A stretch of 64,000 nucleotides of DNA from Desulfobulbaceae bacterium (GCA_020444175.1 JAHLLM010000032.1:186-64185); one strand, 5' to 3'. Shown: positions 17,009-36,978, counted from the first letter of the stretch. The notes: generated from the sequence alone by a model not told the origin. Numbers and translations are program-made.

Positions 17009-17044
17009 GTTATGAGTTATAGGTTATATAACTTCTTTAAAGTT

Positions 17045-20000
17045 TTAGTTAATCGTTACTTGCAGATCACCGTCTTCGTTAAAAGTGTAATCGGTTCTGT
17101 TATGAAGTGAATCAAGAATCATAATCCTGATTCGGTAATCACCGGCACGATTATAGGAGTGATCGATTCCAGCGGCAATATCAGCTACAGGATCATTTGA
17201 AATGGTACGTGACCTGTCGCCCCAGTAAATGTAGGCGCGATATGCGGATGCATCAACTGTTCCTGAAAGAGTTACAGTATCAGCGGCAACTGCGGTAGCG
17301 AAATCTGCGGCCGCAACCGGATCTTCAACAACAACAGCGTTTGCGTCAACGCTTGCTGTATCACATACTGCTGACTCATCTGCACCAGTGGTAGCGTCAT
17401 CATTCAGACATACTGTAACGCTTGCCGGGTAAGCTCCTTCAGCAGAATACTGCATGATCTGAGTTGAACCAGCCGGGAAGAGCGGATTTTCACCAAGTAC
17501 GGATATACCAAGTGTTCCAGCGTTTGTATCCCAACTGTAGTTACAACCCTGTCCCCATGGAGTAAGCACACCGTCAATGAGTACAGAACAGCTTGAACGG
17601 CTTGCATTCAGCTCAACGACCATGTCATATTCCGTAGAAGAAAGAGCACTGAGCTGCGCTGTTGCCTGGTAGGTATTCTGAGCTTGAGCAACTCCAGGAG
17701 TCATCAACAGGTCAAGTGTCTGCTGCGGATAACCGAGGAACTGGTTGGCGCTCATAGCAGTAGCAATGTGACGTTTGCCGTCCATGGCAGTGGCTGCTGC
17801 GGAGTTACACGGAACAACCGCCGGAGTCATGGGATTAGGTCCGCCCAGGTAATCATAGCAGTAGGAAGCCTGATCCCAAGCTGCAACATGGTTCGGGTTA
17901 CTCGGATTCTGAGCACCACTTACACCCCATTTCACTTTCGGAGTACCGTCTGCCTTGTAAGACTGCTGCAGGTCGACCTTGAAGTGAGAAACTGCCTCGG
18001 CGCGGCCAAGCAGAAGACCCATAGGATTGTGTCCGATCTCTGCCATATCAGTCATGGCGCCTTCACAATCACCATCTTGCATACAGGCACCGTTGTTGCG
18101 GAAACCGCCAGTACATGCTCCAGGAATACCGTTACCAGGATCAGCACCAACACAGGTACCATTGATCATGCCAGCATACATTGCTGCAGAACCGGCACCC
18201 ATCATACCGTCGATAGCGGCTTCAACACCGGCATCTGCGTAGTTCGGCATACAGTTATTGACGCTCTGTCCAGCCATGGGGCTGAAGCTGATAGGACCTG
18301 CGAAAGGATTACATCCAAGTGTTCCACTTGTCTGCAGTTCTTTCAGAGCAAAGCCCTGGATACCGGCAACACCGTCATACATACCCATCTGCATTGCTGT
18401 TCCAGCCGGGAAGCCCATGGCCTGATCAAAGGTCGTAGACATCATACCGATTACATGCTGCAGTTGAGCGTTGCCGCCTGTTGTACCGAACATCGCGTTA
18501 TTGGAGAACCAGGACCATGAAGCACATTCTGCTGTCATGTTCGGCTCACCGGTCATGGGATTGAAGTAGAAATTATGATGGTCGGTATTTGGGTTAGCCA
18601 TTCCGCCCAAACCGTCATCAGCCATTTTGGATGGATCGCCTGCGCCACACATGGCGGCTGCATCGAAATCAGCAAACATGGCCATCCAGTTTTTAACGAT
18701 CTCATAACCGCCTACACCAAAGCCAGGAAGACCGGCATTGGCTACAGGCTGGGTGTAGCCTTCAAAGAAGCCCACTGAGAACGGTGAGTAGTTGGGGCTT
18801 GCAGCGTTCATTGAAGAGTGACAGCTTACGCAACCGCCGCGCTCGGAACCGCCAAGGGCCCATTCTTTCGGAACAACACCGTGGGTTACGTCAAAGTCAG
18901 CCTGAATAACGTTCAGGAAGGTGACGAAACGTGCATCAGAACCGTTTGCACCACTGTCAAAGGCAGCCATCATGGCATCGATCTCTTCTTCAGTGTCGAT
19001 TTCCCAGGAGTCAACAATCTGGAAACCGTCAAAAAGAGGTACGGTGTTGCCGCCGTTCAGACGCATATCAAACTGCGGGTTATTATCGCGAACAAATTCA
19101 GCAACACGCTGCAGGTCACGGTTTTTAACTGGTGACGGGAAAGCGGCTGTTGTAGCGTCAAGGATATTGTCCATCGGCTCGCCAGCGGCAACCATTCCGG
19201 CGTCGTCTTGTACCAATACGCCGCTGTTCGGCACCATCTCATACCAGGTGGGAAGCAGTGAAGGCAGAACAGGATAGATCTTGGTCTCGCCATTCTTGGT
19301 GGCCCATTTACGTACGGAAGGTACGCTGTTATGGGTACCGGTGACAAGGTCAAAGTTCCAGTCAAGAACGTTTCTGAAAGTTCCACGGGCAAAACCAGCG
19401 GTCCAGTCACGATATTTCAAACGGCCGGGAGCTGAATAAGTCTCAGGCACATGACAGGTCACACAACCGATTCTGTCAAGATGGAGCTGAGGCAGACCGT
19501 TATGCAGCGGAGTAGGAGCATCAAGAGTTCCGCCGTTGTCTACCAGTTTTGGGTTGTCTCGTTCAGTATGACAACCGCTGCAGCGAATCTTGGCATCCAG
19601 GTTGTTCTTTCCTTTGGTATCAGGGAAGGAATCCGCCTGGGCAAACTGATGATCCATGGCGTAAATACGCTCGGCAGGATAATCATAGCCATGATGCTCG
19701 CCGGCTGGGATATCTTCATAACCGGTTCCTGTTGTCGAACCAACTGCGTAATGACAGGTGGCACATTCCATACCGTTTTGGTCATGCACATCGATATCAG
19801 GCATCTTACCCTGAATCGGATCGCCGAAGTTCGGTACGGTATTAGGATCAGCATCAAGGGTTGAAGGAGCAAACATTGACATGCCCCAGCGACCGTTAAC
19901 ACCATAAGCATCGTTTTCTGCAGTTACTTTATGTGCACGTTTACCCATACCGGTCTTACAACCGAAATCGAACCAGTAATCGTCGTTTACAGCACCAGGA

Positions 20001-21433
20001 CCGTTGTCGGTATCAAGATCACTGCTTGCACCCATGTTTCCTGAAGGCATTGGATTTGAAGGATCATGAATAAGGCCGTAGTTACCATAACCGGTCTTCA
20101 TGGCCATCATGCCGGGGAGTCCCATGGTATTATCATCACGGGCGTGACATACGGAACAGTTCTCGCTCTTCGGTGTACCGGCGATTTGTGCGGATTCAAT
20201 CTTCACACAGTCTACGGAAGGACCGTTTACATAATAAGGTGTGGCATACTGGCCGGCACATTGGCCACCAGTAAAGGCCTGGTAGGAGTAGTCACCACAA
20301 CCGGAAACATTATATATAACGTCGCCGCTTACACATGTTCCAACGCCTGTTGTATCTCCACCAGGAGAAACAGCGCCTGCACCCCAGTCAACACCGGTCA
20401 AGTCATCAACAGCACCATCACCATCAGCATCAGTAAATGTACCTTTCGCACCGGCACCCATGGAAGCGATAAGGTCAAGACGACGCTGTTTCAGACCGAA
20501 GTTACGGTTATACATATCATATTCCGTAACACCATCGCCGATGGTAACTGTCCGGCCAGGACCTTGAGGTGTTCCTGAACATGTAGGATCAACCATCGGG
20601 CCGATTGGATTGGAAGGACCACAATCAAGGGTCTTCAACCAGGCGGAACCAGCGTTTGAACCGTCAAGATGACACATCAAACAGTCCATCTCGGCTTTAT
20701 TTGTTGCACTCATGTTGCCAACAGTGACGTTGGTCCATGATGTTTCGTCTTCAGCAGTGTTTGGATCATCGGGGCGTGCATATTTCAGAACATAGGTGTC
20801 GCCTGGTCCTTCACCTGCAGAGCCGTAGGCATTGAGATCGCGGTTATATTCCATCTGACCGCCACCAACATGACAAACGCCACAGGTGTTTACCCAGGAC
20901 TGGGCTCCCATCTCAACTGAAAGAGGATTTGTTAAAGGATCAGCATTTTTAGCCGCCAACTGGCGGTTTGAGGGAGGTCAGTACTTGCCGAACATACCGG
21001 GCGAGTTGGCCCAGAACTTACCATGAACTGCATGACGCAAATGATTGCCGTAGTCTTCATTACGACCTTCCTGGGAATGACGGCCAACAACGAAACCATG
21101 CTCATATGCGGTTGTTTCAAAGCTTACCCATTCAACTTCACCAGTTGTCTCATTCTGGATACCCTGTGTCTTAACAACTGTCCTTGTAGCTCCACCACCA
21201 TCGTAACTACCACGAGGTCCTGAAAGGCTTGTGCTGCCATCTGCCTCAACAACATGATCATGACACGCGCCACAGGTCATTTTAGGGCTGTAGGGTGTCG
21301 TAGAATCAGCAATGATAGTACCAGCAGTATCCCGCAAAGGAACTGACGGATGGGCAAATGCATTGCTGCCGGCCATCAGAGCTGCGGTTGCCAGGGCTGA
21401 AACAACTAAGCCACTTTTATACCTTTTTTTCAT
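17045..21433 (-). CDS. putative selenocysteine-containing exported octaheme cytochrome c, 1462 aa (U152), with C-terminal PKD-like domains
   Basis: ORFs 20978-21433 and 17045-20959 are in one frame joined by TGA at 20978-20980, reading GMFGKY*PPSNRQLAAKN. Signal peptide and CGACH lie upstream, 7 CxxCH downstream; SECIS-like hairpin; same junction in the paralog. Confidence 0.85.
20951..20980 (-). promoter_or_regulatory. UGA codon plus candidate bacterial SECIS element
   Basis: UGA-CCUCCCUCAAA-CCGCC-AGUU-GGCGG; the stem starts after an 11-nt spacer. Confidence 0.75.
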
Positions 21434-21599
21434 TTTTAACTCCTTCGGTTAACTTCTTCTTAGTTCGATTTTCCCAGTCACTCAATTCGGCTTGGGGGAG
21501 CCGCGGGAATTTTCGTTTTAGATCCCGACTATCAAGTTAACTGTGGACTATCTCATTCTTGTAACGCAAATCACAATTTGGGAATGTGCTTGCATAAGT

Positions 21600-21616
21600 A
21601 GCAATCTGTGTGCCCA
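21600..21616 (-). promoter_or_regulatory. sigma54 (-24/-12) promoter
   Basis: TGGGCACACAGATTGCT = GG-N10-GC, ~165 nt upstream of ATG 21433. Confidence 0.75.
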
Positions 21617-22501
21617 GTCTCAAAAAAAATATTTTTTTCTCGCTTAATACTATTCCAACATGTTGATAATTAAGAAATTATAAAAAAACCACCCTTTGTC
21701 AAATGGGGCGTATTCCCCCAACTACCACAAAGCGGCATTGGGTAGATCAACCCTGCCATTTCACACAAAATGACACCACTCACCCGGGGCATTTGCCCCG
21801 ATTTATGCATTTTCCCCCTTTAATTGGAAAAAATCCCCCTTCCTTCTCTTTCTCCATCTAGAAGGCCACACTCCTTGGCAATGAGGTTCCCAGCCATTTT
21901 CCACAACAAACAATCTTCCAGACAACAACCCGTAATAACGTAGAAAATACATTCTCCCTCCTCTCAGCACATGCGGGTCAAATTCCCCACCCAACAATCA
22001 AGTCCTCCACTTTCCCATCTTACGATGCATATTGCCTGAAAACGGAGTTTCTGATTTTTTTCAGGGGCAAATCAATTCCCATGGAACAGTGTCCTTCTTT
22101 CTTCAAACTCACTTTGAGACATACTCTGCCTCTCTCCATGGCATCTCAAGGCCGACCTGTTTCCCAAAGAACTGCAAATTCCAATTGGCACTAAAACCCA
22201 TAAACCTGTTTCTTTCGGTGTGATTTTTGCTTATCTTTGCTTATCTATAGAGCTGTTCAGCTGTACCGCACGGAGCATGCGCTTCACTCGTCGTGTGCTC
22301 AAGGGGCCGCTTACACGACCACATCTGAACAGCTGCAGTCCTGCATTCTGGTCAAACACACGTGCCCTTTTGACACGAAGGCAACCTGTCAGATATACGT
22401 TTTGGACTGTTGGTCAGCTTTGTAACTTTTAGAAAGTCCGTCAATTTTTCATAGAGTGAACGTAAAATCGGTCTATCATTTTCCGGAAGCAAGCAATGTG
22501 A

Positions 22502-24142
22502 ATGAGGAAAACTTTGAGTCTCAGAAACCTGAAGAGAAAGAAAATAAAATCGAAAAAAAACGACCAGCAAGAAGCCCAACGTTTTTTTAGTATCGCCATG
22601 GCTCATAAAACCGATGGTCGTCTTGATGAGGCAATCCTGTTTTTCAAGAAGACGCTGCAATTCAACCCCGAGCATGCCGAGGCCAGCAACAATCTCGGCA
22701 ACACCTTGCATCTCCAGGGTAAAACACATGATGCCCTCCCCTATTACCAGTCAGCCTGTGATCTTGTGCCGCTTGCCCCTGAGGTCCTTTTCAACTATGG
22801 CAGCGCCCTTTATCAGGAAGGTTATATAAACAAATCCATAGAAATACTTACCCAGGCAACCCGGATTGACGCCTCGCATTTTAAAGCCTTTGCCTCTCTG
22901 GGAGTTGCCTATCAGGCGCAAAACAACCTTGACAAAGCCTTCTCGTGTCTTGAACGCGCCATAGAGCTCAATCCACATTACCAGGAAGCCCACCGCTTTC
23001 TTGGACTTGTTTTAAAAGACCAGGGAAACATGGATGGAGCGCTTCACAAATTTCGCAGCATCCTGCGAGACGATCCTCAAGATGCATTCACCAGGTATCT
23101 GTTGTCCCGTTATACGAAATACACTTCCGAAGATGAAGCTGAAGTCCCTTTTCTGCTTTCTCTCCTTGATGCACATGATACGAGCAATGATGACGCCATT
23201 TTCCTGCACTTCAGCCTCGGTAAAATTTTTGATGACTTGAAACAGTATGAAAAGGCTTTTCATCATTATACACTTGCCAACCGAAAAAAAAGGGAGTCGC
23301 TTAACCGGATTTCAATTTCTCCGGGCATAGATCTTAAAGGCATAAAAGAGGTATTCACACCCCAGCTTTTTTCCCGCTATCACCCTGTAAGCAGTTCTGA
23401 GCTCCCGGTTTTCATCATTGGCATGCCGCGTTCCGGCACCACACTGGTTGAACAGATTTGCGCCAGCCATTCCCTGGTCCACGGGGCAGGTGAATTGAAA
23501 ATGATTCGAGGAGTGGTTGAGGGCCTTAAGGCGCAATATAAAAAGAAAGGCTACCCACACTGCTTGAATTCCCTGGCTCCGGAAACCCTGGATACAATAG
23601 CCAATACCTATCTGGAGGAGCTCAAAGCAGGCTGCCCGAAAAATATCAGCAGAATAACAGACAAGATGCCCACTAATTTTATTGAGCTTGGCTTGATACG
23701 CCTCATCTTTCCCCGGACCAAAATTATTCACTGCCTGCGTGATCCGCTGGACACATGCCTTTCCAATTTTTTCCAGAATTTTGAAGAGGGAAACGAATGT
23801 TCGTTTGACCTTGTTGAACTTGCCTACTACTACCGAAAATACAGAGAAGTGATGCAATTCTGGCAGACGGCGCTGCCAGGCAGAATTTTTGAAATTCGTT
23901 ATGAAAACCTGGTGGAAAACGTGGAGGAGGAATCAAAAAGACTTATTGACTTCCTCGGCCTGGAATGGCAGGAGAGTTGCCTTGCTTTTTTCAAGACAAA
24001 ACGGATGGTCCACACCTCAAGCGACTGGCAGGTCAGACAACCTATTTACAATAAATCCGTGCGCCGCTGGAAAAATTATGAAAAATTCCTGGAACCACTG
24101 AGCAAAGGACTGGGAGAGTATGCCGGCACGGTTGCCGGTTAA
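22502..24142 (+). CDS. TPR-repeat sulfotransferase family protein
   Basis: N-terminal TPRs; FIIGMPRSGTTLVEQI PAPS-binding loop, DKMPTNF, RDPLDTCLS, RYENLV, QVRQPIY. Confidence 0.92.
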   Translation: MRKTLSLRNLKRKKIKSKKNDQQEAQRFFSIAMAHKTDGRLDEAILFFKKTLQFNPEHAEASNNLGNTLHLQGKTHDALPYYQSACDLVPLAPEVLFNYGSALYQEGYINKSIEILTQATRIDASHFKAFASLGVAYQAQNNLDKAFSCLERAIELNPHYQEAHRFLGLVLKDQGNMDGALHKFRSILRDDPQDAFTRYLLSRYTKYTSEDEAEVPFLLSLLDAHDTSNDDAIFLHFSLGKIFDDLKQYEKAFHHYTLANRKKRESLNRISISPGIDLKGIKEVFTPQLFSRYHPVSSSELPVFIIGMPRSGTTLVEQICASHSLVHGAGELKMIRGVVEGLKAQYKKKGYPHCLNSLAPETLDTIANTYLEELKAGCPKNISRITDKMPTNFIELGLIRLIFPRTKIIHCLRDPLDTCLSNFFQNFEEGNECSFDLVELAYYYRKYREVMQFWQTALPGRIFEIRYENLVENVEEESKRLIDFLGLEWQESCLAFFKTKRMVHTSSDWQVRQPIYNKSVRRWKNYEKFLEPLSKGLGEYAGTVAG

Positions 24143-24148
24143 GATATT

Positions 24149-24251
24149 TGACGGTTTCGCAAAAACCCGCTCAACCGCCGCCGACACGTATGTAACTTGT
24201 TGATATTGCGTTGGCGGATGGTCAGCTTCAGGATTTTTTGCGAGATTGTCA
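24149..24251 (-). mobile_element. MITE family A, copy 4 (103 bp)
   Basis: TGACGGTTTCGCAAAAA...TTTTTGCGAGATTGTCA; 4-bp duplication TATT. Confidence 0.8.
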
Positions 24252-24326
24252 TATTTGCTTGTTTGCTTCGAATTTTATTTATGCATGGATAAATAAAGCT
24301 GTCCCAAAGCCGCGCATACATTTTTT

Positions 24327-24386
24327 GTAACTATTCAGCAAGAGCAAGGAATTGCTCTTAGCTCCAGAGTGTAACTGAATAGTTAC
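24327..24386. mobile_element. MITE family B, short copy
   Basis: Perfect 12-bp ends GTAACTATTCAG / CTGAATAGTTAC; ATTTTTT on both sides. Confidence 0.7.
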
Positions 24387-24415
24387 ATTTTTTTAACAAT
24401 AAAAGAGACCCAATC

Positions 24416-25858
24416 ATGACCCGAGAAAATGATCTTCTTTATTACCTGACCTGCTTTACCACCGGATTTGCCATCCTGGTCTTTGAACTCTTATCCTTTC
24501 GAATGCTGTCGCCCTATTTCGGCAACTCAAGTATTGTTATCGGCACAATTATCAACAGCATCCTGCTGGCCCTGTCTCTTGGTTATTATCTGGGCGGATA
24601 CATTGCTGACAAAAAAAAATCGAGCAAACTCATTTACTATGTCATCATATCCTCTTCCGCCTATATGTTTCTCGTCTACCTCACCTACCCCATCTTATTA
24701 AAAAGCATCGCCAAAATACCTGTTATAGCAGGATCGCTGCTTGCCATCATCATGCTCTTTTTTCTGCCCATGATACTTCTTTCTTTTGTGCCGCCTTATC
24801 TGATCAAGGTAATCTCCTCAAAGGACAATATCGGGGTAAGTTCAGGGAAAATTTTCTCCATCTCCACCTTGGGATCAATCATGGGGGGAATCTTTACCAC
24901 CTTTTTTCTCATACCCTATGCGGGAACAAAAGAAAGTATCCTGCTGACCTCAGTCCTTCTTTTTCTTCTGGGATGTGCCGGACTGAAAAGCGTCAAGCTC
25001 ATGCCGGTCCCGGCGGCCTTCTTACTTCTGGCCCCTTACGGACTTTCGGCAGGTTATGACCTGGATATCATTTATGAAGACGAATCAGTTTACAATATCA
25101 TTGCCGTGGAAGAGTATGATGGCAATAACTATTTAAAACTCAATGATCTTGCCGGACACCATTCGGTTTCAATTAATAAAAAGACCTGCCTGGCTGGAAC
25201 CTACACGGACATGCATTTATTTCCGCATATCTTTATTGATGCAGAGAAAACTCTCATATTGGGAAACGGCGCCGGCAACATCATGGAACAAGTTTCCTGT
25301 TTTTCCGGGACAAGCATTGACGGGGTTGAAATTGACAGGGAGATAACACAGGTGGGCAAGGAGTATTTCGGGCTTACTCTCAACGGCAAGAAAAAAGTCT
25401 ATCATGAAGATGCACGGGTTTTTTTACAAAAGAGCCAGACAAGATATGACGTTATCCACGTTGACCTTTTCGCCGGCAATCCATACATTCCCTTCCACCT
25501 CTCAACAGTGGAGTTTTTCCAGCAGATACACGACGCCCTTGAAGACCAAGGAGCCATGGTGGTCAATTACCCGAAGTTTCTGGCAAAGGATAAAGAGTTA
25601 TCCGACTTTTATCTGGGAACCATAGCCCAAGTATTTCCAACAACATTTCTTTCAGATGAGGCATTATTTTCTTTTAAAACGGATATTTCCGCACAGCAAG
25701 TCATGGACCAAGTGAGCTCGCGGCAACCAAGCGGCAGTCTTTTCATCGTTGCCAGAGATGCACTTGCCAAATTTGAGAAAATAGAACCAGGATCAAAGTC
25801 TTTCACCGACGACTATGCCCCAATTGAAATGCTGACCTACAAAGCATTGAAGAGATAG
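24416..25858 (+). CDS. fused membrane domain / spermidine-synthase-like SAM-dependent enzyme
   Basis: About seven hydrophobic helices (ELLSFRMLSPYFG, STLGSIMG), then LILGNGAG, GVEID, EDARVFL, YDVIHVDLF, FTDDYAP. Confidence 0.88.
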   Translation: MTRENDLLYYLTCFTTGFAILVFELLSFRMLSPYFGNSSIVIGTIINSILLALSLGYYLGGYIADKKKSSKLIYYVIISSSAYMFLVYLTYPILLKSIAKIPVIAGSLLAIIMLFFLPMILLSFVPPYLIKVISSKDNIGVSSGKIFSISTLGSIMGGIFTTFFLIPYAGTKESILLTSVLLFLLGCAGLKSVKLMPVPAAFLLLAPYGLSAGYDLDIIYEDESVYNIIAVEEYDGNNYLKLNDLAGHHSVSINKKTCLAGTYTDMHLFPHIFIDAEKTLILGNGAGNIMEQVSCFSGTSIDGVEIDREITQVGKEYFGLTLNGKKKVYHEDARVFLQKSQTRYDVIHVDLFAGNPYIPFHLSTVEFFQQIHDALEDQGAMVVNYPKFLAKDKELSDFYLGTIAQVFPTTFLSDEALFSFKTDISAQQVMDQVSSRQPSGSLFIVARDALAKFEKIEPGSKSFTDDYAPIEMLTYKALKR

Positions 25859-25967
25859 GGAGGGGAAGAGAATATCGAATGTTGAACAAGGAATGTCGAA
25901 TGTCAAAGTGAAATATCACTTCTGCTGTTCGACATCCCCTGTTCATTATTCTGCGGGTCGTTTCTTG

Positions 25968-26963
25968 TTAACTCAGGGTCCGCTCAATCTTGGCATTCTT
26001 TTTCAGATCTTCCAGGTAGGTATTGAATTTTTTCTCAATCTCCTGTTGTTTGAGCCACGGTATCAATTTTTCTTTAACCTCATCAAAAGTCATTGTGCCT
26101 TCAGCTTTCTTGTCGGTCAGTTTGATAATATGGTAGCCGAATTTCGTTTCCACCACATCGCTCACATCACCCACATTCATTGAGAAAGCGGCATCCTCAA
26201 AAGGTTTGACCATCTGGCCTTTGCCGAAAAAGCCGAGGTCGCCGCCATTGGCACTGCTGGGACAGGAAGAATTGGTTTTAGCAAGCTCTGCAAAATCACC
26301 GCCATCCTTAATCTGCTTGCCAACGCTCTCAATCTTTTCATGAGCTTCTTTCTTTGTGGCTTCATCCGCATTTTCATCTACGGAAACAAGGATATGACTG
26401 GCCTTAACCTGCTCAGGCTGTTTGAACATATCCTGGTTCTCGGCATAAAATTTCTCTGCATCTTTATCAGTGACAACCGTGGTTTCGGTAAATTCAACTT
26501 TTAAAATATCCTGCAGTTTTTTCAGGGCCATGCTTTTTTCTATTTCAGCCTTCATCTCTTCTTCAGAAACCTGTTTCTCTTTTAAAAAGTCCTGAAACGC
26601 GGCCTCATCGGGAAACTGTTTTTTAAACCCGGCAACCGTATCGTCAACCTCTTTTGGATCAATAACGATACCCTGCTTGCTGCTCTGCTGATGAAGCAGT
26701 TCAACATTGATTAAGCGATCAAGGACCTTATCGTTCAGCTCAGTCATTTTAGCAGGATCCGATTCCTGCCAGCCGACTTTGGCAAACTGCTCTTTGGCGG
26801 CTAAAAGATTCCTGTCAAATTCCTCTTTACTGATTTTTACACCGTTGACAGTGGCCACACTGTCATCCTCTGCAGCACCAGCTCCTGTCACGCTCACAAC
26901 AAAAAACATTGAGAGCATAAGAAGGGTTGCTATCAGATTTTTTCTCCAGACTGTTTTTTTCAT
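25968..26963 (-). CDS. peptidyl-prolyl cis-trans isomerase, PpiC/SurA-PrsA type
   Basis: Start ATG 26963 (AGGAG RBS); signal peptide; canonical ASHILV, GGDLGFF, MVKPFEDAAF, FGYHII. Confidence 0.93.
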   Translation of the reverse strand: MKKTVWRKNLIATLLMLSMFFVVSVTGAGAAEDDSVATVNGVKISKEEFDRNLLAAKEQFAKVGWQESDPAKMTELNDKVLDRLINVELLHQQSSKQGIVIDPKEVDDTVAGFKKQFPDEAAFQDFLKEKQVSEEEMKAEIEKSMALKKLQDILKVEFTETTVVTDKDAEKFYAENQDMFKQPEQVKASHILVSVDENADEATKKEAHEKIESVGKQIKDGGDFAELAKTNSSCPSSANGGDLGFFGKGQMVKPFEDAAFSMNVGDVSDVVETKFGYHIIKLTDKKAEGTMTFDEVKEKLIPWLKQQEIEKKFNTYLEDLKKNAKIERTLS

Positions 26964-27367
26964 GATTTCTCCTAACCCAGATGAACTGGTTGATTGAGAT
27001 TTGGTTCTTTTCAGTTTGTGCAGTTGGAGAATAGGATCATCCAAAAATGCCCAGGCAACTGAAACGCAAAAAGCTTTAGTGTCTCATAACGAAACTGAAT
27101 GCCATAAATTCCTAATGGATTCGCACTGTCAATCCATGATCCTTCCCTCTTCAAAAAAAGCAAGAGGAGCCCCCCAACATTGGCTTGACACTTAACTCTG
27201 CGAAATGATAGAAAATGAAAGACATCAGCAAAAAAGATATTTATACATAGTTACTTATGTTGTGGAAATAGACAACATTTTCCGTTAAAGGTTTCAAGTT
27301 CTACAAAAAAAGATACAGAACATCAATACGGAGTGTGAAGTTAAGATTCAACAGGAGGGAACTTTCA

Positions 27368-28546
27368 ATGGTATCACTTTCGCAAATGCTTTGTTTTATT
27401 TTCACTTTTTTTCTTTCAGGTGCTCTGGCCTCAACGGGATTTGCCCATAACCCTATTCTTGACAAAGGAAAAGACAAACACAAAGACCCAGAGAAGCTGA
27501 TGAACAAGAGTTCCTTCTGTATTGAATGCCATCAAGAAGAAACTCCTGGAATTTTTGAAGAATGGCTGAAATCAACCCATGCCAGAACAGGAGTGGGCTG
27601 TGCCGATTGTCATGCCACAGACGCGAAAGAATATGATACTTTTCTCCATGCAGAAAAACATTATATACGGACCGTTGTCAGCCCGATAATTTGCGCCAAA
27701 TGCCACAAAGACATACAGCGCGACTACTTCACAAGCGGTCATGCACAAGCTCTTGAGGTTCTGAAAACTATAAAAGAGGATGATCCCAGGTTTCCAGTCG
27801 TCTCTCTTTATAAGGATGATAACTTCCAGCAATGCTCCGGTTGTCACGGCGGCGAGGTCGCACTTGACGACAACCATCTTCCGGATGAGGCTACCTGGCC
27901 TGATAGCGGAGCCGGACGCATCAACCCCAATACAAGTCACGGCAACTGCTCTTCATGTCATCTCGGTCACCGCTTCTCCTCTGCAGCCGCCCGCCAGCCG
28001 GAAACATGCCTTCGCTGCCACGACGGCAGGAACTACCCGGAAGGAGATATCTACCGCAGTTCTGCCCACGGAATGGTTTATGCCACTCAGACAGACAAAG
28101 AAAACCTTGGAAAACTTGGATTTTACTTTACCGGCAAAGACATGGTTGCCCCCACCTGCGCTTTTTGCCATTTCAACGGATCAGGACATGGCCAGCGGAC
28201 CCGCCACAATGGAGCATGGCGTCTGCCCCGGGATCTCACCCACCCGGAAGCCCCCATGGCCCCTAAAAATGCCGACAAACTGCGAAGCAACATGAAAGCA
28301 GTGTGCAACCAGTGCCATGCCAAAACTGTTATTAATCGCTTTTTTGATAATGCGGACAAAAGACTTGCCGAATATCAGGAAAAAACGGTACAGCCAAAAC
28401 TGAAAGAATACCGCCGCAAACTTGCGGAAGTAAAAGAAGGGACTGAGCGGGAAAATATCATTAAAGAGTACACACGATTTCTTGCTGAGGGTAAACGCTA
28501 TCGCATGAATCTCTATATGGGAAATATCGGGCGCACCCAGAGATAG
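27368..28546 (+). CDS. octaheme cytochrome of the hydroxylamine oxidoreductase (HAO)-like family, short C-terminus
   Basis: Start ATG 27368 after AGGAGG; signal peptide; CIECH, CADCH, CAKCH, CSGCH, CSSCH, CLRCH, CAFCH, CNQCH with WP.SG.GRINP, HRFS...AR.PETC and APTCA spacing. Confidence 0.82.
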   Translation: MVSLSQMLCFIFTFFLSGALASTGFAHNPILDKGKDKHKDPEKLMNKSSFCIECHQEETPGIFEEWLKSTHARTGVGCADCHATDAKEYDTFLHAEKHYIRTVVSPIICAKCHKDIQRDYFTSGHAQALEVLKTIKEDDPRFPVVSLYKDDNFQQCSGCHGGEVALDDNHLPDEATWPDSGAGRINPNTSHGNCSSCHLGHRFSSAAARQPETCLRCHDGRNYPEGDIYRSSAHGMVYATQTDKENLGKLGFYFTGKDMVAPTCAFCHFNGSGHGQRTRHNGAWRLPRDLTHPEAPMAPKNADKLRSNMKAVCNQCHAKTVINRFFDNADKRLAEYQEKTVQPKLKEYRRKLAEVKEGTERENIIKEYTRFLAEGKRYRMNLYMGNIGRTQR

Positions 28547-28647
28547 GTCACAAGGCTTCTCAGCCTGCAACTCTGTTTTTACCACCAAGTTCACGAAGAG
28601 AAAAACTCGTATTCTTCGTGGGCTTGGTGTTTTTTAAGCATATTCGT

Positions 28648-28701
28648 ATCTATTCTGCGAAGGCTCGAAATGGGCCTCAACTCCAGGCCGTAACTATTCA
28701 G
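28648..28701 (+). repeat. partial MITE family B
   Basis: Matches 9757-9810 and ends in GTAACTATTCAG. Confidence 0.65.
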
Positions 28702-28706
28702 CTTAA

Positions 28707-30440
28707 ATGAACGGCAATGAGACGTGCATGTCAAAAAAGATAAAAAAGCTTGCCCGAAAAAAAAATCTCAGAAAACCTATCTTGCCGGATGGCAAAACGG
28801 ATACGCTCTTTCAACTGGCCGTACAGCACCACCAGGCAGGAAGATTCCTGGAAGCTGAGCAGCTTTATCAAAAGGTGCTTGCCAGCCATCCAAACCATGC
28901 CGATGCCAATCATTTTCTTGGACTTATTGCCCATCAGATGGATAAGAACGACACAGCTGTGCGGCTTATCAAAAAGGCAATTCGTGCCAACCCCCGCCTT
29001 GCTAATGCCCATAACAGCCTGGGTGCCGTTTATAGAAAAACAGGCAAACTGAAAGATGCGCTCACCCATTACAAAAGAGCCATCACACTACAGGCCGATT
29101 TTGCCGAGGCTCACAGCAACCTTGGCAACGTTTTTAACGAACTTGGACTTTTCGATGAGGCAATTGACTCGTACCGAAAAGCGCTGGCCATAAATCCCAA
29201 TGACAGTGAGGCCCACTCCAGCCTTATTTTTGCCTTAAACTATCACCCCGACGTCAGCCCTGAAGATATCTACAAGGAATCAGTGAGCTGGTCAAAACAT
29301 CACAGCAGACAACGAAATGACAATGAAACCACAACAGAGAAGCGGGCTTCCAAACGACTATTAAGGATAGGCTACGTATCCCCTGATTTTTATCATCACC
29401 CGGTAGGCCGCTTTCTCCTGCCTGTTCTGCAAGAACACGACCGCAGCGCATTTGAAATTTTCTGTTATTCAAACACCTCAAAAAATGATGCCTGGACAGA
29501 AAAAATAAGAGCAAACTGCGATCACTGGTTTGACATCACCAGTAAAACTGATGACGCAACGTGCAAGCAAATAACAGAAGACAGGATAGATTTACTTATT
29601 GATCTTGCCGGCCACAGCGGAGGAAACCGGCTCGGCATTTTTTCGGGCAGGGCGGCACCTGTTCAGGCCAACTGGCTTGGCTACGTGAATACAACCGGCC
29701 TTGCTGCCATGGATTACCGAATTACGGATGACATTGTCGACCCTCCGGGCAGTTCCGAGAATCATTACACCGAAAGCCTGATACGTCTCCCTGACGGTTT
29801 CTTTTGTTTTTCGCCACCCGAACAATCCCCGAAAATAGTGGAACCGCCTGCCCAGAAAACAGGCATGGTTACCTTTGGCTCAACAAATAACATCAGCAAA
29901 CTCAACTCAAATGTTATTTCTCTCTGGTCACAAATTCTGGTCTCAATCCCTAAGTCCAGGCTGCTGATAAGAAGCAAGGCCTGTACAGATGCTGCAGTGA
30001 GGAAAAACCTCCTTGCCCAATTCTGCAGAAGAGGAGTGGCCGCCCATTGTATTGAATTTCTGCAAGGGACCACCTTTGACAATTACCTCAGAGCCTATAA
30101 CGAAATCGATATTTGCCTCGATACTTTCCCCCATAACGGACACACAGTCTCATGTGACGCACTGTGGATGGGGTGCCCCATCATTACCTTGCGGGGAAAC
30201 CGTTATGCTGGACGAATGGGGGCCGATCTGCTCAGCCGGCTCGATCTTGCTGAGCTTATAGCGGAAACAGAAAAACAATACATCGACATTGCAACGGCAC
30301 TTGCTGGTGATCTCAACCGACTTGCCATGTTAAGGAGTGAAATACGCCCCCGCTTTCTCCATTCTTCACTTTGTGATGCAAAACGTTTTACCCATTCTCT
30401 TGAGACGGCGTTTCAAAAGATAATTAAAGAGAAATATTAA
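28707..30440 (+). CDS. TPR-repeat O-GlcNAc transferase-like glycosyltransferase (GT41/SPINDLY family)
   Basis: TPRs, then RIGYVSPDF..HPVG, DLAGHS, APVQANWLGY..TTGL, LDTFP.NG..DALWMGCP; start could be 28728. Confidence 0.9.
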   Translation: MNGNETCMSKKIKKLARKKNLRKPILPDGKTDTLFQLAVQHHQAGRFLEAEQLYQKVLASHPNHADANHFLGLIAHQMDKNDTAVRLIKKAIRANPRLANAHNSLGAVYRKTGKLKDALTHYKRAITLQADFAEAHSNLGNVFNELGLFDEAIDSYRKALAINPNDSEAHSSLIFALNYHPDVSPEDIYKESVSWSKHHSRQRNDNETTTEKRASKRLLRIGYVSPDFYHHPVGRFLLPVLQEHDRSAFEIFCYSNTSKNDAWTEKIRANCDHWFDITSKTDDATCKQITEDRIDLLIDLAGHSGGNRLGIFSGRAAPVQANWLGYVNTTGLAAMDYRITDDIVDPPGSSENHYTESLIRLPDGFFCFSPPEQSPKIVEPPAQKTGMVTFGSTNNISKLNSNVISLWSQILVSIPKSRLLIRSKACTDAAVRKNLLAQFCRRGVAAHCIEFLQGTTFDNYLRAYNEIDICLDTFPHNGHTVSCDALWMGCPIITLRGNRYAGRMGADLLSRLDLAELIAETEKQYIDIATALAGDLNRLAMLRSEIRPRFLHSSLCDAKRFTHSLETAFQKIIKEKY

Positions 30441-30653
30441 ATTTGGGTATTTCACCCCTATTTTTTTCAAATTGGGCAATTAACCCGCCAAGCATTGCGG
30501 ACATTCCCCCTACATGATACCCTGTGGCATGCCCAACAAAGCGTGAAATGAAGCTTATTGTGTTGAAAAAATTTTTTTCCCCGCCTCTAACCCCCTGACA
30601 TAAAAAGACAAGACAAAAACCATTGGGTAATTCACCCGCCACCTTCCCATCCA

Positions 30654-30669
30654 AGGCACACTGCTTGCT
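30654..30669 (+). promoter_or_regulatory. sigma54 (-24/-12) promoter
   Basis: AGGCACACTGCTTGCT = GG-N10-GC, ~170 nt upstream of ATG 30839. Confidence 0.75.
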
Positions 30670-30838
30670 ATAAAGCTCATGTGAGTTCCCCACTCATGAA
30701 GTGCGCGTTACTAGTTGTGTGATTTCTCTACACCAATTGGATTGGGTGCAAAATGAATGGACCCGGTCGGCACACCCCCCAAAGCTGCTATCAAATGGTG
30801 TTGAAAAATCAAAAAAAAGAAAACTTAAGGAGTTAAAA

Positions 30839-33800
30839 ATGAAAAAAAGCTATAAAAGCGGTCTGATAGTCTCAGTCATAGCCGCAGCAGCGTTTATGGT
30901 GAGTGCCTCAGCTCAGGCCTTTACCCATGATCGTGTCACCTTGCGGGATGCCTCAGGTGCTGCTCTTGCCGCTGTTGATACTGATGCTGACGGCATCGGC
31001 GATGCAGTTCCGGCTACTGCTCCTGCGTACAGCGCCAAAGAAACGTGTGGCGCGTGTCATGCCTATGATGCTATTGAGCGTCATTCTTTCCATGCTCAGC
31101 TCGGGGCCAACGAGCACAAAGGTTGGAATGCCTGGGCAATGGGTAACTGGAACTCTATTGCTACGAAAGGAAAACCCTGGGTTCAGTCGCCAGGACATGC
31201 AGGCAAGTGGTGACCTCCTTCTGCTCGGCAGTTTGCTCGAGTATTCGGAAATGATATGTCATCCTTTAACGCTGCTGATAAAGGCAAGTACTACAGTGAT
31301 AACGACAATGATGGTTCTTATGATGGCGGCACTGTAGATAAAATGTGTAACCCTTTTGGTGTCCAGATGGTTCCAGGCTGGCCAAAACCTGGCTGTGTCA
31401 ACGTTAAACCTCTGACCCAGGCCCCGGTCGACTTTGCTGCCGGACCTTTTGACTTTGGTTCAACCACTGCCTTTGCAGCCAAGGTGGACAACTCAGTAGC
31501 CGGCCAGATGCGTGACTGTGCTGAATGTCACGTTGGTGGCGGCATGATGGAATACATCCCAGTATCCGGCTCCACTGATCTATCCGCCGGAACATGCGAA
31601 ACCAGGACAGAATTCTTTGACTCAGACAAAGACGGTGTTGCTGAGCAATATGACTCTAACGGCGGCGTAGCATGTGATGCCTCTGATCAGGGCACGCAAA
31701 TCTGCGGAACCTATCCCTACACATATGGCACCAAAAACTTTCAGTGCATCCCTGCCAACAGTCGTCAGGAACTGCGTAGCGCAACCCTTACCGGCGTCAA
31801 TACCTTTAATTATTTCATCGACCAGTATGATGAGAACAACGACGGTTCTATCGGCGAGGTTATTGCTCAGGACTATAATGACACCGGTGTTCTGGAGATG
31901 GACTGCCTGATGTGCCATCTTGACGGATATTCCTGGGAAGACAGGAAAGAAGCCATACGCAAAGGCCGCTTTGATGCGTCCCGTGCCCAAGGTGCCGGGA
32001 TTGGTGTCGTTGTTGACGCAAGCGGCGACGGCATGATCGGTGCCGGTGACGGCAATGTAGTTTCCTATGATGCCGCGGCTATCAGCGTAAATTCAAGCGG
32101 CGAGTTGACCCTGGGCGCCACCGGACTTAACGTTCACGGCTCAACTCCAAGTGAAAACTGTAACAGCTGTCATGGTGACCTGCACCAGGTTGACTGGAAG
32201 AAACGCGGTGACTCATGGACCGGCGACTACGGCAACGATGTCCATGCTGCAATCGGCTGTATCGGTTGTCATGATCCTTCAGTTAAATGGGCTGCAGACG
32301 GTACTGACGCTGACCACGGCTGGCGTGACTACATGGAAAGCCTGAACCTTGACGGTAAGGGATCCAGCGCAGTACTTGGCCACGACCCTGCTAAAGGAAA
32401 TGCCCCATACAGTTCACTGTGGAACAAGACAGACAACTCAATCGTTGGCTGTGCGGGCTGTCACTCCGGTGCTCCTACAGCAGCTGAAACCTTTGATGCT
32501 GCCGATCCAACTGCAAAGCATGAGGCTTTGGGCCTGACTTCCATCATCGCCCAGGACGGCCGTGACGGTGTCCGCGATATAAGCCATATCGAGCTCCTCG
32601 ACTGCTCCGTCTGCCATGTGCGCAAACTTGGCCGCGGGCCTTCCGCAGTTGAAGGCGGCACAACACACGGTTCACTCTACGAGTGGGGTACCGGTGGCGC
32701 CATGGTTGACTCCACCGGCACCGACGCTGATGGACGCCTGACCGACCACGAGAACCTCTATGTAGAGCGTACCATGGAAGACAACCTGTGCTACTCATGG
32801 CAGGGTTCCAAGCTCACAGCGAGAAACGCCCTGGTTACCATGTTCTGGCGTGACAAAGACGACAACTTTGCAAATGGCGGAGATCCGGCTTACTTTGACG
32901 TCAATGCTGATGGCCAGACAGGTGCTATGGATGCGGTTAATCCATCCCATGTCCGTGATGCCATGGCTGCTGCGAATCTTGATGTTCTGACCCACGATGG
33001 TATTATCGATGACGCTGAAATAGCTGCCCAGCAGACTGCACTGGCTAACTACCTTGCTGATAACGATGCAGATGGATACAGTGACATTCTTGGCACCTGT
33101 ATGTCCACCTCCTGTGGTAATGTTGCAGACTGGACAAAAGGCAAATTAAAACTGTCCTTCATGGGTGTTACATTCAAGGTTAACCATAACATCAGTCCTG
33201 CGGGTACTGCCCTGGGTAAAGGTGGTTGTCTTGACTGTCATGGTGCCGGTACTGTTTACAGCGGCTCCTACGATCTCAAGCCACGCGACCTGGATGCAAG
33301 CTGGGACAACACCTCTCCAACAGGCGAGAACAAATGGGTTGTTCCTTTCACCAAGGTTAACAATGCTGATTACGACGGCGACGGCGTAGTTGAAGGCGGC
33401 GACAAAGGGGACTGGCAGTTTTCTGACTTCCATCCAACTCTGTTTGCCAAAGGCCTGAAAGGACGTTCCATTGCTGTAACTGCTGCTAAAGGCGGCGCGG
33501 ACACTATTCGAACCATCGATCGTTCCGAGCTTCTTTATGAAGGCGACTCCACAGTAACTGGTGGTCCTGGTGCACGTACCATGGTTGACGGTACAGTGGC
33601 CACTGGTCGTGCAGCAATCGTTGCGGCTCTTGACAACGTTACCGACGCTATGCATAACCGTCATGTTGCTGCCGGCTATGGTAAGTGTTCAACCTGTCAT
33701 GACAACGGTGCAGGCGGACTGAATCTGTCCAAAGCGGGCGTATCTGATCTCGGATCCCTGTATGCTTTTACAGTAGTTGATGACGGTCTTGGCAACCCGC

Positions 33801-34450
33801 TGACCTGTTCAGCCAATGCCTGTCATGGCGACAACGGTTTCTCTGATGATGTTGCCTGGGAACTGGCAAGTGAAGTCAGTGTAACCCCGTACCTCAGCGC
33901 TCTTGCCGACCAGGATTATGATATGGTTGTTGAGCTCAACGCCAGCAGGTCAAACTGCGATAACGGTTGCGTGAGTTACAGTTGGGACACTTCAGGCGGT
34001 ACTGTACTTGGTGAACCGACGGACGAATTTGGCGCTCTCCTTTATCCCGCCGGTTCCGCGCTAGTTGTCCAGTACGGAGACACCAGTCAACACACTGCGT
34101 CTATTACGGTTACGGATGCTTCTGGTGAAATGAGGGCAACAAGCGTCAGCTTTACTCCTCAGATCGTTACTGATCCGGTAACAGGAGCTGATTTTACTTC
34201 TGCGGTTGCCGGGAATGACGTGACTCTTTCAGCAACAGTTGATGCATCTGCTTATCGCGCCTACATTTACTGGGGCGACAGGTCACGTACCATTTCCAAT
34301 GATCCTGTAGCCGATCTTGCTGCTGGAATCGCTCACACCTATAATCGTGTCGGCGATTACCGAATCAGGGTTATGGTTCTTGATTCACTTCATAACAGAA
34401 CCGATTACACTTTTAACGAGGACGGTGATCTGGAAGTAACGATTAATTAA
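30839..34450 (+). CDS. putative selenocysteine-containing exported multiheme cytochrome c, 1203 aa (U125; 9 CxxCH + CX4CH), with C-terminal PKD-like domains
   Basis: Start ATG 30839 (AAGGAG). TGA at 31211-31213 is in frame with ORF 31256-34450, reading SPGHAGKW*PPSARQFARVF. Signal peptide occurs only upstream of the TGA; SECIS-like hairpin follows. Confidence 0.85.
31211..31242 (+). promoter_or_regulatory. UGA codon plus candidate bacterial SECIS element
   Basis: UGA-CCUCCUUCU-GCUCG-GC-AGUUU-GC-U-CGAGU; hairpin with a bulged U. Confidence 0.75.
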
Positions 34451-34487
34451 CCTTCTCATACGCTAGATAAAACTTAAAACCTTTATC

Positions 34488-34522
34488 AAACAAGGCAGGC
34501 GGAATATCCGCCTGCCTTGTTT
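34488..34522 (+). terminator. intrinsic terminator after Sec cytochrome 2
   Basis: AAACAAGGCAGGCGGA-ata-TCCGCCTGCCTTGTTT. Confidence 0.85.
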
Positions 34523-34648
34523 TGTTTAGGGTTGGCTTTATAGAGCATGTTGAGTATAAAGTTTATTGTAAGAATTACGTATTAAGCTGGTGGATGAGAA
34601 TAATCCATGACTCTCATCTTACACCTTACCCCTCATTCCTCGCACATT

Positions 34649-36724
34649 ATGAGCCTCAGAAAACTCAAACGCAAACGTTCAAAAAGTGCCCAGAAAAATC
34701 TGACCAGATCCTTTGGGACAGCCGACCCGGACCAGCTTCTTCAAATCGCCCAAAAACACCATCATGCCGGGGATCTTGGGCAGGCTGAAAAGGCTTACAG
34801 GGAATTACTCCGGGCCTTTCCGAATCATGCGGCGGGCCACAATGATCTTGGTGTTCTTTTTCACAGCCTGAACCAACCCCAAAAAGCTCTTTTCCACTAC
34901 AAAAAAGCTGTATCTCTCAAGGCGGATTACCCACAGGCTCTTATCAACTCAGGCATCATCCTCATGGACCAGGGAGAATTTGATGAAGCGGTTGGCCTTT
35001 TTCAGCGAGTGCTCGACTCCGCCCCCACCGACATAGCAGCCCTGACCAACTTAGGCACAGCACAACACAGGCAGGGTAAACTTAGCGAGGCACTTGACTC
35101 GTTTCGTCAGGTTTTGGCCCTTGACCCCAATGATCTTTACGGGCTGAACAATCTGGCCCTTGTTTTGAAAGACCTTGGCGAGCTTGAGGAGGCCGAATCG
35201 ATCTTTAGTAAGGTAATCAGGCTGCAGCCCAGCGCAGAAGCCCATCATGGTCTTGGCCTTATCCACCGCAAACAGGGCAAACAGAATGATGCTGTTCAGT
35301 CCTTTCAGAAAGCCCTTGAGATAAACCCGGACGGAATTGATTCCTGGAGAAACATCGGCATTATTTATACCGAAAAAATGGAATTCGAAAAGGCCATTGA
35401 CGTTTATGAAAAAATCATCAACCAAAAACCTGATGATACGGAAAGCCTGAATAAACTTGGCTTGTTACACCAGAAATGCGGGAAACTGGAGGAGGCTGTT
35501 TCCTTCTTTCGGAAGGCCCTGCAGCTACAACCCGATTTTCTTGAAGCCCGAGCAAGTTTTGCCGAAACATTAGAAAAATACAACAAACCCGAAGAAGCCT
35601 ATCAAGAGGTCCTTAACGGTCTTGAAATCGCCCCACACGATATAGAACTGCAAACCATCGCGGCAACCTGCGAGAGGCGTCTCGGCAAGCAAACTGAGGC
35701 CCTTGAACGCCTCAGCCGACTGGAAACATCGGACCTGCAACCGGATCTGCAGAGAATGCTTTTCTTTGAGCTCGGTTATCTCCATAATAAATCCGGCAAT
35801 ACGGAAAAGGCATACAGTGCTTTTGCCGCAGCCAACCGTGCCTCGCAAACCATTAACAGCACTATTGATAAAGATTTTTTTACGCGCCGCATCGATCTGC
35901 TGCAGGAAGAATTTCAAAACATTACCTCCTTGCCCGAAATTGCTCCCGAGCTCCTGGGCAGAGCCCCTGTCTTCCTGGTCGGTTTTCCACGCTCAGGCAC
36001 CACACTGCTTGATCAAATTCTTGACAGCCATCCCCTGGTGCAGACCATGGAGGAAAAAGACATTCTTGCCCGGCTTGAAAACAAAGTGGCTGCCCCTTTT
36101 GAAAACTACCTTGCAGCCTGGCAGAAACTGACAAAAGAAAATATCACCGAACTGCAGGAAGAGTATTATCAGGGGGCTGCCCAGTATCTCACACATGAAC
36201 CTGGAACGATTTTAATTGACAGAAACCCCTACAATACCATGCGATCCTCGCTCATATGGCGGCTTTTCCCTGATGCGAAAATCATACTGGCCATACGGCA
36301 TCCTTTGGATGTCTGTCTCAGTTGTTTTATGCAGAATTTTAAAATCAATGTTGCCAATGCAAATTTCTTCACCATCGACGATGCAGCTGAATTCTACCGA
36401 AAAATCATGCAATTATGGCAGCTTTTCGAGAAAACGCTTCCCCTGAATTATCACATTGTCAGATATGAAGACCTGGTTGCTGATCTTGAAGGAGAAGCAC
36501 GAAAAGTCATTGATTTTCTTGAACTGGAATGGGACGAAAGAAGCCTTGCCTTTCATGAACACGCCCAAGCTAAAAGCCGCATCAAGACAGCGAGCTATCA
36601 TCAGGTGACGCAACCGATATATAAAGATGCAAGATACCGCTGGCTCAGGTATGAAAAATACGTTGGGGCTGCCAGGGAAAAGCTGGCGCCATTTATAACG
36701 TATTTTGGCTATGAGAATGTGTGA
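34649..36724 (+). CDS. TPR-repeat sulfotransferase family protein
   Basis: Long TPR array; FLVGFPRSGTTLLDQI, RHPLDVCLS, RYEDLV, QVTQPIY; start 34649 or 34607. Confidence 0.92.
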   Translation: MSLRKLKRKRSKSAQKNLTRSFGTADPDQLLQIAQKHHHAGDLGQAEKAYRELLRAFPNHAAGHNDLGVLFHSLNQPQKALFHYKKAVSLKADYPQALINSGIILMDQGEFDEAVGLFQRVLDSAPTDIAALTNLGTAQHRQGKLSEALDSFRQVLALDPNDLYGLNNLALVLKDLGELEEAESIFSKVIRLQPSAEAHHGLGLIHRKQGKQNDAVQSFQKALEINPDGIDSWRNIGIIYTEKMEFEKAIDVYEKIINQKPDDTESLNKLGLLHQKCGKLEEAVSFFRKALQLQPDFLEARASFAETLEKYNKPEEAYQEVLNGLEIAPHDIELQTIAATCERRLGKQTEALERLSRLETSDLQPDLQRMLFFELGYLHNKSGNTEKAYSAFAAANRASQTINSTIDKDFFTRRIDLLQEEFQNITSLPEIAPELLGRAPVFLVGFPRSGTTLLDQILDSHPLVQTMEEKDILARLENKVAAPFENYLAAWQKLTKENITELQEEYYQGAAQYLTHEPGTILIDRNPYNTMRSSLIWRLFPDAKIILAIRHPLDVCLSCFMQNFKINVANANFFTIDDAAEFYRKIMQLWQLFEKTLPLNYHIVRYEDLVADLEGEARKVIDFLELEWDERSLAFHEHAQAKSRIKTASYHQVTQPIYKDARYRWLRYEKYVGAAREKLAPFITYFGYENV

Positions 36725-36954: not shown

Positions 36955-36978
36955 GTTTCTATCTTAAATTGATTCTGC

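Follow-up and report, generated by a model that had tools for sequence, protein, structure and literature searches.

Predicted selenocysteine insertion elements in a family of giant multiheme cytochromes of the Desulfobacterota

Within a 64,000-nucleotide (nt) stretch of DNA from a Desulfobulbaceae bacterium (GCA_020444175.1 JAHLLM010000032.1:186-64185), referred to here as the window, lie two giant paralogous genes for secreted multiheme c-type cytochromes, each interrupted by a single in-frame TGA codon that is followed directly by the sequence of an RNA hairpin. Both hairpins very probably function as bacterial selenocysteine insertion sequence (SECIS) elements, a judgement that comes from sequence comparison. 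They behave like SECIS elements across more than 100 related genes; the two apparently split genes are therefore almost certainly intact selenoprotein genes. The support for the SECIS reading comes from this family-wide comparison, not from the two paralogs alone, and our verdict is that the hairpins are canonical SECIS elements of a selenocytochrome family that the main texts and tables of the selenoprotein catalogues consulted do not name. The comparison also shows here that the hairpins of UGA-bearing homologs are, to judge by their synonymous sites, maintained by selection on RNA. They give RNA-level evidence, independent of the protein alignment, for giant cytochromes as selenoproteins.

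The hairpins of the two paralogs

Paralog 1 (21433..17045, minus strand) comprises 1462 codons and paralog 2 (30839..34450, plus strand) 1203, with readthrough of U152 and U125, respectively; the two genes are divergently oriented. Translated with TGA as selenocysteine (Sec, U), each contains one in-frame TGA and zero other stops, compared with 18 TGAs in a wrong frame of the same DNA. The predicted Sec codons are TGA 20980..20978 (minus), in the motif SPGMFGKY-U-PPSNRQLA of paralog 1, and TGA 31211..31213 (plus), in the motif SPGHAGKW-U-PPSARQFA of paralog 2. Common to both proteins are an N-terminus that resembles a signal peptide (in paralog 1, as judged from the sequence by eye), a first CXXCH haem motif, the motif SPG..GK[YW]-U-PPS.RQ[LF]A and a PKD tail; the two tails are 58% identical.

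The TGA of paralog 1 is followed by 16 nt (CCTCCCTCAAACCGCC), then AGTT and GGCGG. Hairpin 1 (20966..20953, minus; CCGCC-AGUU-GGCGG, -9.4 kcal/mol) pairs CCGCC at 20966..20962 with GGCGG at 20957..20953 around a 4-nt loop at 20961..20958; its stem of 5 bp starts 11 nt, and its loop 16 nt, after the UGA. In paralog 2, 16 nt (CCTCCTTCTGCTCGGC) separate the TGA from the AGTT at 31230, and hairpin 2 (31222..31243, plus; UGCUCGGC(A)-GUU-(U)GC-U-CGAGUA, -13.0 kcal/mol) consists of 9 bp, one U bulging from the 3' arm, and a GUU loop closed by an A-U pair (that is, AGUUU) that likewise starts 16 nt after the UGA. RNAfold, applied to the UGA plus 37 nt, returns both as minimum-energy structures, so that the hairpins put forward for this DNA in the original prediction are recovered; the spacing of exactly 16 nt between UGA and AGUU in both genes, the start of the first stem 11 nt after the UGA (9 to 11 nt in the prediction), and the G in the loop of both hairpins, all claimed there, are borne out by the sequence.

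The standard of comparison is the bSECISearch consensus of Zhang and Gladyshev (2005), in the form in which PMC13188914 summarises it: an apical loop of 3 to 9 nt on an upper stem of 4 to 16 bp (PMC13188914, Fig. 2A legend), a G in the first two loop positions that is usually followed by G or U (PMC13188914), a UGA-to-loop distance of 16 to 37 nt (PMC13188914, PMC10778597) and a minimum free energy (MFE) of no more than -7.5 kcal/mol (PMC13188914). Both hairpins satisfy every one of these constraints as summarised there, and the original description of them as SECIS-like is accordingly upheld: they are stem-loops directly downstream of an in-frame UGA, inside the coding region; their loops and stems measure 4 nt and 5 bp in hairpin 1 and 3 nt (5 if the A-U pair is open) and 9 bp with one bulge in hairpin 2; the G stands in AGUU and AGUUU, respectively; the loop lies 16 nt from the UGA in both paralogs, the shortest distance allowed; and the energies of -9.4 and -13.0 kcal/mol are below the limit. 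The homologs that carry Cys at the Sec site, represented by 13 distinct sequence contexts, allow the further comparison on which most of what follows turns.

The hairpin and its codons across the family

A six-frame search of whole genomes located orthologs in 20 of 61 related genomes, with one TGA in every match that covers the N-terminus; the orthologs of paralog 2 in these genomes are 1136 to 1180 codons long and have exactly one TGA apiece. A search profile built from 16 N-terminal domains matched 39 of 401 genomes of the class and 81 of 401 sampled genomes of the phylum, in the latter mostly at loci that carry a TGA. The selenoprotein family served by these putative SECIS elements is widespread: it occurs in metagenome-assembled genomes of the Desulfobulbia (Desulfobulbaceae, Desulfurivibrio, Desulfocapsa, Ca. 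Desulfobia) and in the Desulfuromonadia (Malonomonas rubra DSM 5091, several Geomonas species, Geotalea toluenoxydans), and all of these named records have the TGA and the same hairpin. Extraction of the Sec column over all loci with a hidden Markov model gave 209 matches (181 TGA, 14 Cys codons and 14 others). One context cut by a contig end was dropped, and removal of duplicates reduced the remaining 208 to 158 distinct contexts of 150 nt, with 131 TGA, 13 Cys, 7 Ser, 4 Gln, 1 Met and 2 Phe; in all 131 distinct TGA homologs the reading frame continues without another stop. The base 3' of the UGA is C in 112 of the 131 and A in 19, never G or U, and the codons next after the UGA are nearly always Pro-Pro.

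Retention of the hairpin, scored by a rule tied to the published bacterial model as a G-containing loop on a stem of 5 bp or more, follows the identity of the codon at the Sec site. Such a hairpin is present at 121/131 TGA sites and at 3/27 non-TGA sites (Cys 2/13, other residues 1/14); when stems of at least 4 bp are admitted, the counts are 129/131, 4/13 and 6/14. The original prediction had named two patterns as adverse to it, absence of the hairpin from TGA-bearing homologs and equal retention by Cys-encoding ones; neither is what these counts show. Of the 129 TGA sites whose stem reaches 4 bp, 106 have the loop AGUU, 7 AGGU and 3 AGGC; the distance from UGA to loop is 16 nt in 103 of them and 22 nt in 18. 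The larger offset belongs to subfamilies with two extra codons between Sec and hairpin: the hairpin travels with the insertion.

That it is the RNA that is conserved can be seen in the synonymous sites, which are frozen in the TGA genes alone. Hairpin 1 is identical in all 18 orthologs of the first set, with zero synonymous variation over 5 codons. In two [NY]RQLA clades, of 18 and 9 distinct sequences, the five successive hairpin codons have an entropy of 0, compared with 1 to 1.7 bits at flanking codons (Pro, Ser, Ala, Lys and Asn). Across the TGA sites Leu is encoded by TTG in 114/114 cases, as against 23/294 Leu codons elsewhere in the same contexts (and 6/15 at the site in non-TGA homologs); Ala is GCG in 111/122, as against 53/437 elsewhere; Gln is CAG in 129/129 and Arg is CGN in 119/119.

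Where these codons do vary, they vary in pairs. Arg CGC with Ala GCG is the commonest combination (91 sequences) and Arg CGT with Ala GCG, which substitutes a U-G pair, occurs in 7; Arg CGA is found solely with Ser TCG (4/4) and Ser AGC with Ala GCT (7/8), each generating an A-U pair. Arg CGG is found solely with the Phe TTT variants (3/3, paralog 2 included), with a register shift of one base: all 3 distinct Phe-variant sequences combine Arg CGG and TTT with GCT or GCC, which yields the shifted register of hairpin 2. The five core pairs form in 122 to 126 of 129 sequences, and the fifth is C-G in 55, U-A in 54 and G-C in 9. In an alignment of 49 sequences the named 7-bp helix has 81.2% of its cells paired, compared with 70.5% in shuffles, and a covariation score of 0.254, compared with 0.119; 0/500 shuffles reach either value, and slid controls are all at or below 62.7% paired and 0.115 covariation. 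Synonymous recoding (200 recodings per sequence) places TGA sites at a median z of -1.9, with 69/131 in the lowest 5%; the corresponding values are +0.24 (1/13) for Cys sites and -0.19 (2/14) for other residues.

The non-TGA homologs show what becomes of these codons in the absence of a UGA. A third paralog in the same genome (L102, on contig C37, ~146118..150305; 1397 codons) has Cys (TGT) at the Sec site and keeps the peptide NRQLAAK, encoded by AAC-AGA-CAG-CTT-GCG and without the hairpin; Sec and Cys forms thus stand side by side in one genome. Related Cys genes have CAG-CTG-GCC or CAG-CTG-GCG at these codons (in L080, CGC-CAG-CTG-GCC), and in other Cys, Ser and Gln lineages the peptide has been lost altogether. 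On a FastTree phylogeny of 157 N-terminal domains, which requires 9 changes of state between TGA and non-TGA, non-TGA branches account for 19% of the total length and carry 7 of the 8 synonymous changes mapped to the Gln and Leu codons (binomial P ~7e-5, on an approximate tree and with one change on an internal branch reconstructed as TGA). Loss of the Sec trait by the host was considered as the cause of the non-TGA homologs and rejected: selB scores above cut-off in 10/10 non-TGA genomes tested, so that trait loss offers no discrimination.

Two variants of the family deserve separate mention. In the YRQLAA subfamily (L161, L163, L166 and similar) a long lower helix, e.g., CCUCCCUCUUA with UAAGAGGGAGA, continues the core hairpin upstream almost as far as the UGA, producing a two-tier structure with an MFE down to -28 kcal/mol. 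In genome family f28 (all 11 of 11 sampled genomes; loci L162, L167, L170, L176 to L180, L190, L191 and L206) the homologs are shorter, ~600 to 650 codons, with Ser, Gln, Met or Phe at the Sec site; neither Sec nor Cys being found there, the redox-active residue must be dispensable in these proteins or their function changed.

A number of observations weigh against the SECIS reading. Taken singly, the two hairpins are only mildly unusual (Z of -1.3 to -2.1, with 7 to 22 of 200 shuffles folding equally well), and a comparable hairpin, by the same structural rule, follows 403 of the 2780 TGA triplets of the window (14.5%), or 169 (6.1%) when an energy of no more than -7.5 kcal/mol is also required. 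The string 'TGA N16 AGTT' is seen 10 times in the window, with ~10.9 expected. The identical placement of AGUU in the two genes is due to homologous codons: Gln-Leu, written cAG-TTg, in paralog 1 and Gln-Phe, written cAG-TTt, in paralog 2. The stems of the two genes pair one base out of register with each other; therefore the two paralogs alone give no demonstration of strict covariation. Hairpin 1 is short (5 bp), with a spacing at the lower limit of the rule, and a scan of window positions 16000..36000 against Rfam (E up to 10) gave only chance-level matches and no family match to SECIS. On its own, the evidence of the window for SECIS elements is weak. Within the family, the hairpin is almost intact in two non-TGA homologs, L081 (Cys) and L155 (Ser); these look like recent conversions, the former having a sister copy with TGA in the same genome and the latter a Ser codon one base removed from TGA. 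RNAalifold on the 49 sequences retains only the inner 3 pairs as a consensus (-3.41 kcal/mol), a reflection of the variation of registers and outer pairs. When TGA state and hairpin state are compared across 7 independent pairs, the sign test falls short of significance (p ~0.375; the same direction in 3.6 pairs, the opposite in 1.0, no difference in 2.4), and with ~9 transitions in the tree a test of this kind is underpowered.

Two claims of the original prediction are qualified by this balance of evidence. 'Covarying' does not hold for the stems of the two paralogs by themselves, with their different registers, and does hold for the family, in its compensatory codon pairs. Support at the RNA level that is independent of the protein argument is provided by synonymous sites frozen throughout the family; the placement of AGUU, which simply follows from homologous codons, does not provide it.

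Selenocysteine and other readings of the UGA

The genome from which the window comes (5.4 Mb, 90 contigs) has what a selenoprotein gene requires of its host, selA, selB, selC and selD: selB (367.8 bits, above the family cut-off), tRNA-Sec (67.2 bits), selA (621.9 bits) and a selD gene that itself contains one TGA. It also has three fdhA-like genes, with one TGA apiece. Elsewhere in the phylum, genomes G414, G491, G478, G511, G573 and G730 each have two separate full-length selB matches above cut-off, which suggests duplicated Sec-specific elongation factors in some Desulfobacterota.

We infer SelB binding and Sec incorporation in these cytochromes by analogy with the established bacterial pathway. 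At the UGA, SelB-GTP in complex with Sec-tRNA(Sec) would bind the apical, G-U-containing loop and the upper stem, which begin 16 and 11 nt, respectively, downstream of the UGA; SelB would deliver selenocysteine in place of termination, and each gene would yield one full-length selenocysteine multiheme cytochrome.

The UGA event promoted by the hairpin might also be of a kind that dispenses with SelB: near-cognate readthrough, with Trp or Cys inserted, or a pausing or attenuation that tunes short versus full-length product. In other systems, readthrough of a stop codon can be promoted by RNA structures downstream of it, and UGA-C is a weak context for termination, a point to set beside the predominance of C (112/131, with A in the remaining 19) at the base after these UGAs. 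Nevertheless, the classic Sec/Cys signature, with Cys at the homologous position in 13 distinct homologs, speaks for selenocysteine, as do the full Sec machinery and the other selenoprotein genes of the same genome, and the loop sequence, position and energy agree with both the bacterial SECIS model and the host's own fdhA hairpins. A SelB-independent event is, on this evidence, improbable.

It is very improbable that the hairpin, with no function in RNA, merely reflects a conserved Arg-Gln-Leu-Ala peptide whose codons happen to be self-complementary. The notion has its attractions: stem and loop fall exactly on the conserved R-Q-L-A codons, RQLA is found in 98 of 129 Gln-anchored TGA contexts, and hairpins of this size follow 14.5% of the TGA triplets of the window by chance. 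It is largely refuted by the synonymous-site data, since the peptide alone would not dictate TTG for Leu at 114/114 TGA sites against a background of 8%, GCG for Ala at 111/122, or the synonymous and compensatory pairings of CGA with TCG, AGC with GCT and CGG with TTT. Non-TGA homologs with the same NRQLAAK have drifted codons (AGA-CAG-CTT in L102, CGC-CAG-CTG-GCC in L080), and the background of flanking codons argues against a genome-wide preference for exactly these ones.

Least credible is the proposal that the TGA is a true stop separating two genes at each locus, one for a haem protein of 124 to 151 amino acids and one for a large cytochrome, with the hairpin between cistrons: it accounts for public gene calls that start 3' of the TGA and for best database matches whose coverage of the first 330 residues is just 19 to 78%, and is contradicted by an uninterrupted frame in 131 distinct homologs, by Cys- and Ser-type homologs that are single uninterrupted genes, by a downstream open reading frame that would have to start at a TTG within the hairpin loop and lack a signal peptide of its own, and by the lack of a U run after either hairpin. 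With the UGA read as selenocysteine, those gene calls of relatives (named 'hypothetical protein' or 'PKD domain-containing protein') become a systematic annotation error that can be corrected: beginning after the UGA, they lose the signal peptide and the first haem from the annotation.

A more speculative reading, somewhat less likely than not, takes the module 'first haem motif + G-K-[WY]-U-P-P-S' as the mark of a very widespread superfamily of multiheme cytochromes with selenocysteine, unnamed in the catalogues consulted, in which Sec is catalytic or haem-proximal. If so, proteins taken for passive conduits of extracellular electrons would act as selenoenzymes at the surface or in the periplasm, the analogy being with the selenoprotein MccSep (see below), and the Arg-Gln-Leu-Ala that follows Sec, a peptide often replaced in non-TGA homologs, would be conserved for the RNA, as SECIS, and not for the protein. 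The cytochrome SECIS elements would in any case offer a clean natural system for the constraint that an RNA signal exerts on an overlapping protein sequence.

Genomic setting and comparison with known systems

The Pfam domains of the two proteins are Cytochrome_C7, MtrC/MtrF domain II/IV haem domains and a C-terminal PKD domain. No NCBIfam model names either paralog (scan of both proteins, E up to 0.01), a sequence search of the PDB gave 0 matches for the N-terminal profile and 0 for the whole window protein P0002, and AlphaFold2, given the 244-residue N-terminal domain and a 16-row alignment, returned a mean predicted local distance difference test (pLDDT) score of 50.6, with the Sec region below 50. 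The PKD-bearing C-terminal tail (~200 to 270 residues) is common to many other proteins of the window, of the same genome and of its relatives, with copies in the window at 17233..18084 (minus), 49953..50774 (plus) and 51779..51985 (plus) and residues 937 to 1202 matched dozens of times in a six-frame search of relatives; it looks like a mobile module for surface display or anchoring.

The selenocytochrome genes are part of a cluster that spans window positions 12114..16800 (minus), 22502..30440 and 34607..39703. Its other members encode further multiheme cytochromes (12114..13634, 13441..14439 and 27335..28546), two SurA-like peptidyl-prolyl isomerases (15712..16800 and 25968..27044), two TPR-sulfotransferase proteins (22502..24142 and 34607..36724), a TPR-GT41 glycosyltransferase (28707..30440) and an NHL beta-propeller protein (38363..39703).

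As a rule, the SECIS elements of bacteria show little conservation from one family to another, according to the account in PMC12013277. Measured against the bacterial consensus, the cytochrome hairpins differ in a spacing at the bottom of the allowed range and in a core, CGCC-AGUU-GGCG, that is kept across two classes of Desulfobacterota. So uniform an element (this core, 16 or 22 nt after the UGA) supplies a simple and specific search pattern for further members of the family.

The original prediction called for comparison with the fdh SECIS elements of the same genome, and both hairpins resemble them. The three fdhA hairpins are GGUGGC-AGGU-GUCGCC (contig C44) and one with the loop AGGUCUU (contig C84), both 17 nt after the UGA, and GGCC-AGUUU-GGCC (contig C1), 18 nt after it, with a loop identical to that of hairpin 2. 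In the fdhA genes the distance from UGA to loop is thus 17 to 18 nt, and AGGU is also the loop of 7/129 cytochrome homologs; in contrast, the fdhA stems lie on Val-Ala-Gly codons and often extend into a lower helix. The SECIS of E. coli fdhF is characterised by G23/U24, by an 11-nt spacer, the distance at which the stem of hairpin 1 also begins, and by a U17 that bulges from the 5' arm; in hairpin 2 it is the 3' arm that has the bulged U.

Three haem-related selenoprotein families are tabulated in a 2026 review (PMC13188914): ExtKL (NF040886), the GSU2204 family (NF041027) and an octaheme family (TIGR04315). The latter two resemble the window proteins as CXXCH-containing selenoproteins of the same phylum, to the extent that they are described there. 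In the NCBIfam scan, NF041027 has no match to the window proteins, and none of its matches in the genome falls on the window's contig; TIGR04315 (the tetrathionate-reductase-family octaheme) also has no match to the window proteins, its matches in the genome being on other contigs, with one of 18.5 bits falling on the Cys paralog of contig C37. Kinship of the N-terminal domain with octaheme tetrathionate reductase was tried and rejected, hhalign assigning 4% probability to its alignment with the TIGR04315 protein of the same genome. The words 'cytochrome' and 'heme' are absent from the main texts of deep-Sep and BSepDB, the supplementary tables of which could list the family, and a literature search found no paper that joins selenoprotein, c-type cytochrome and Desulfobulbaceae.

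The window proteins add a large secreted multiheme cytochrome to a short list of haem selenoproteins of which only MccSep has a known activity. MccSep/ExtKL (GSU2937-2936) is described in PMC13510729 (2026) as a ~49 kDa pentaheme selenoprotein polysulfide reductase, and its family model, NF040886, matches neither window protein (NCBIfam scan, E up to 0.01). The likeness is nonetheless considerable, as far as that description goes: MccSep, too, is a secreted multiheme c-type cytochrome of the Desulfobacterota, with a single Sec specified by an in-frame UGA ahead of a predicted stem-loop, with Cys-type relatives, and with a gene that public annotation has split. The differences are of size and of the placement of Sec. 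MccSep has five haems, with Sec near the C-terminus in ...IPDG-U-PTPNR; the window proteins, at 1203 and 1462 residues, carry theirs in GK[WY]-U-PPS, beyond the first haem motif, and end in C-terminal PKD domains.

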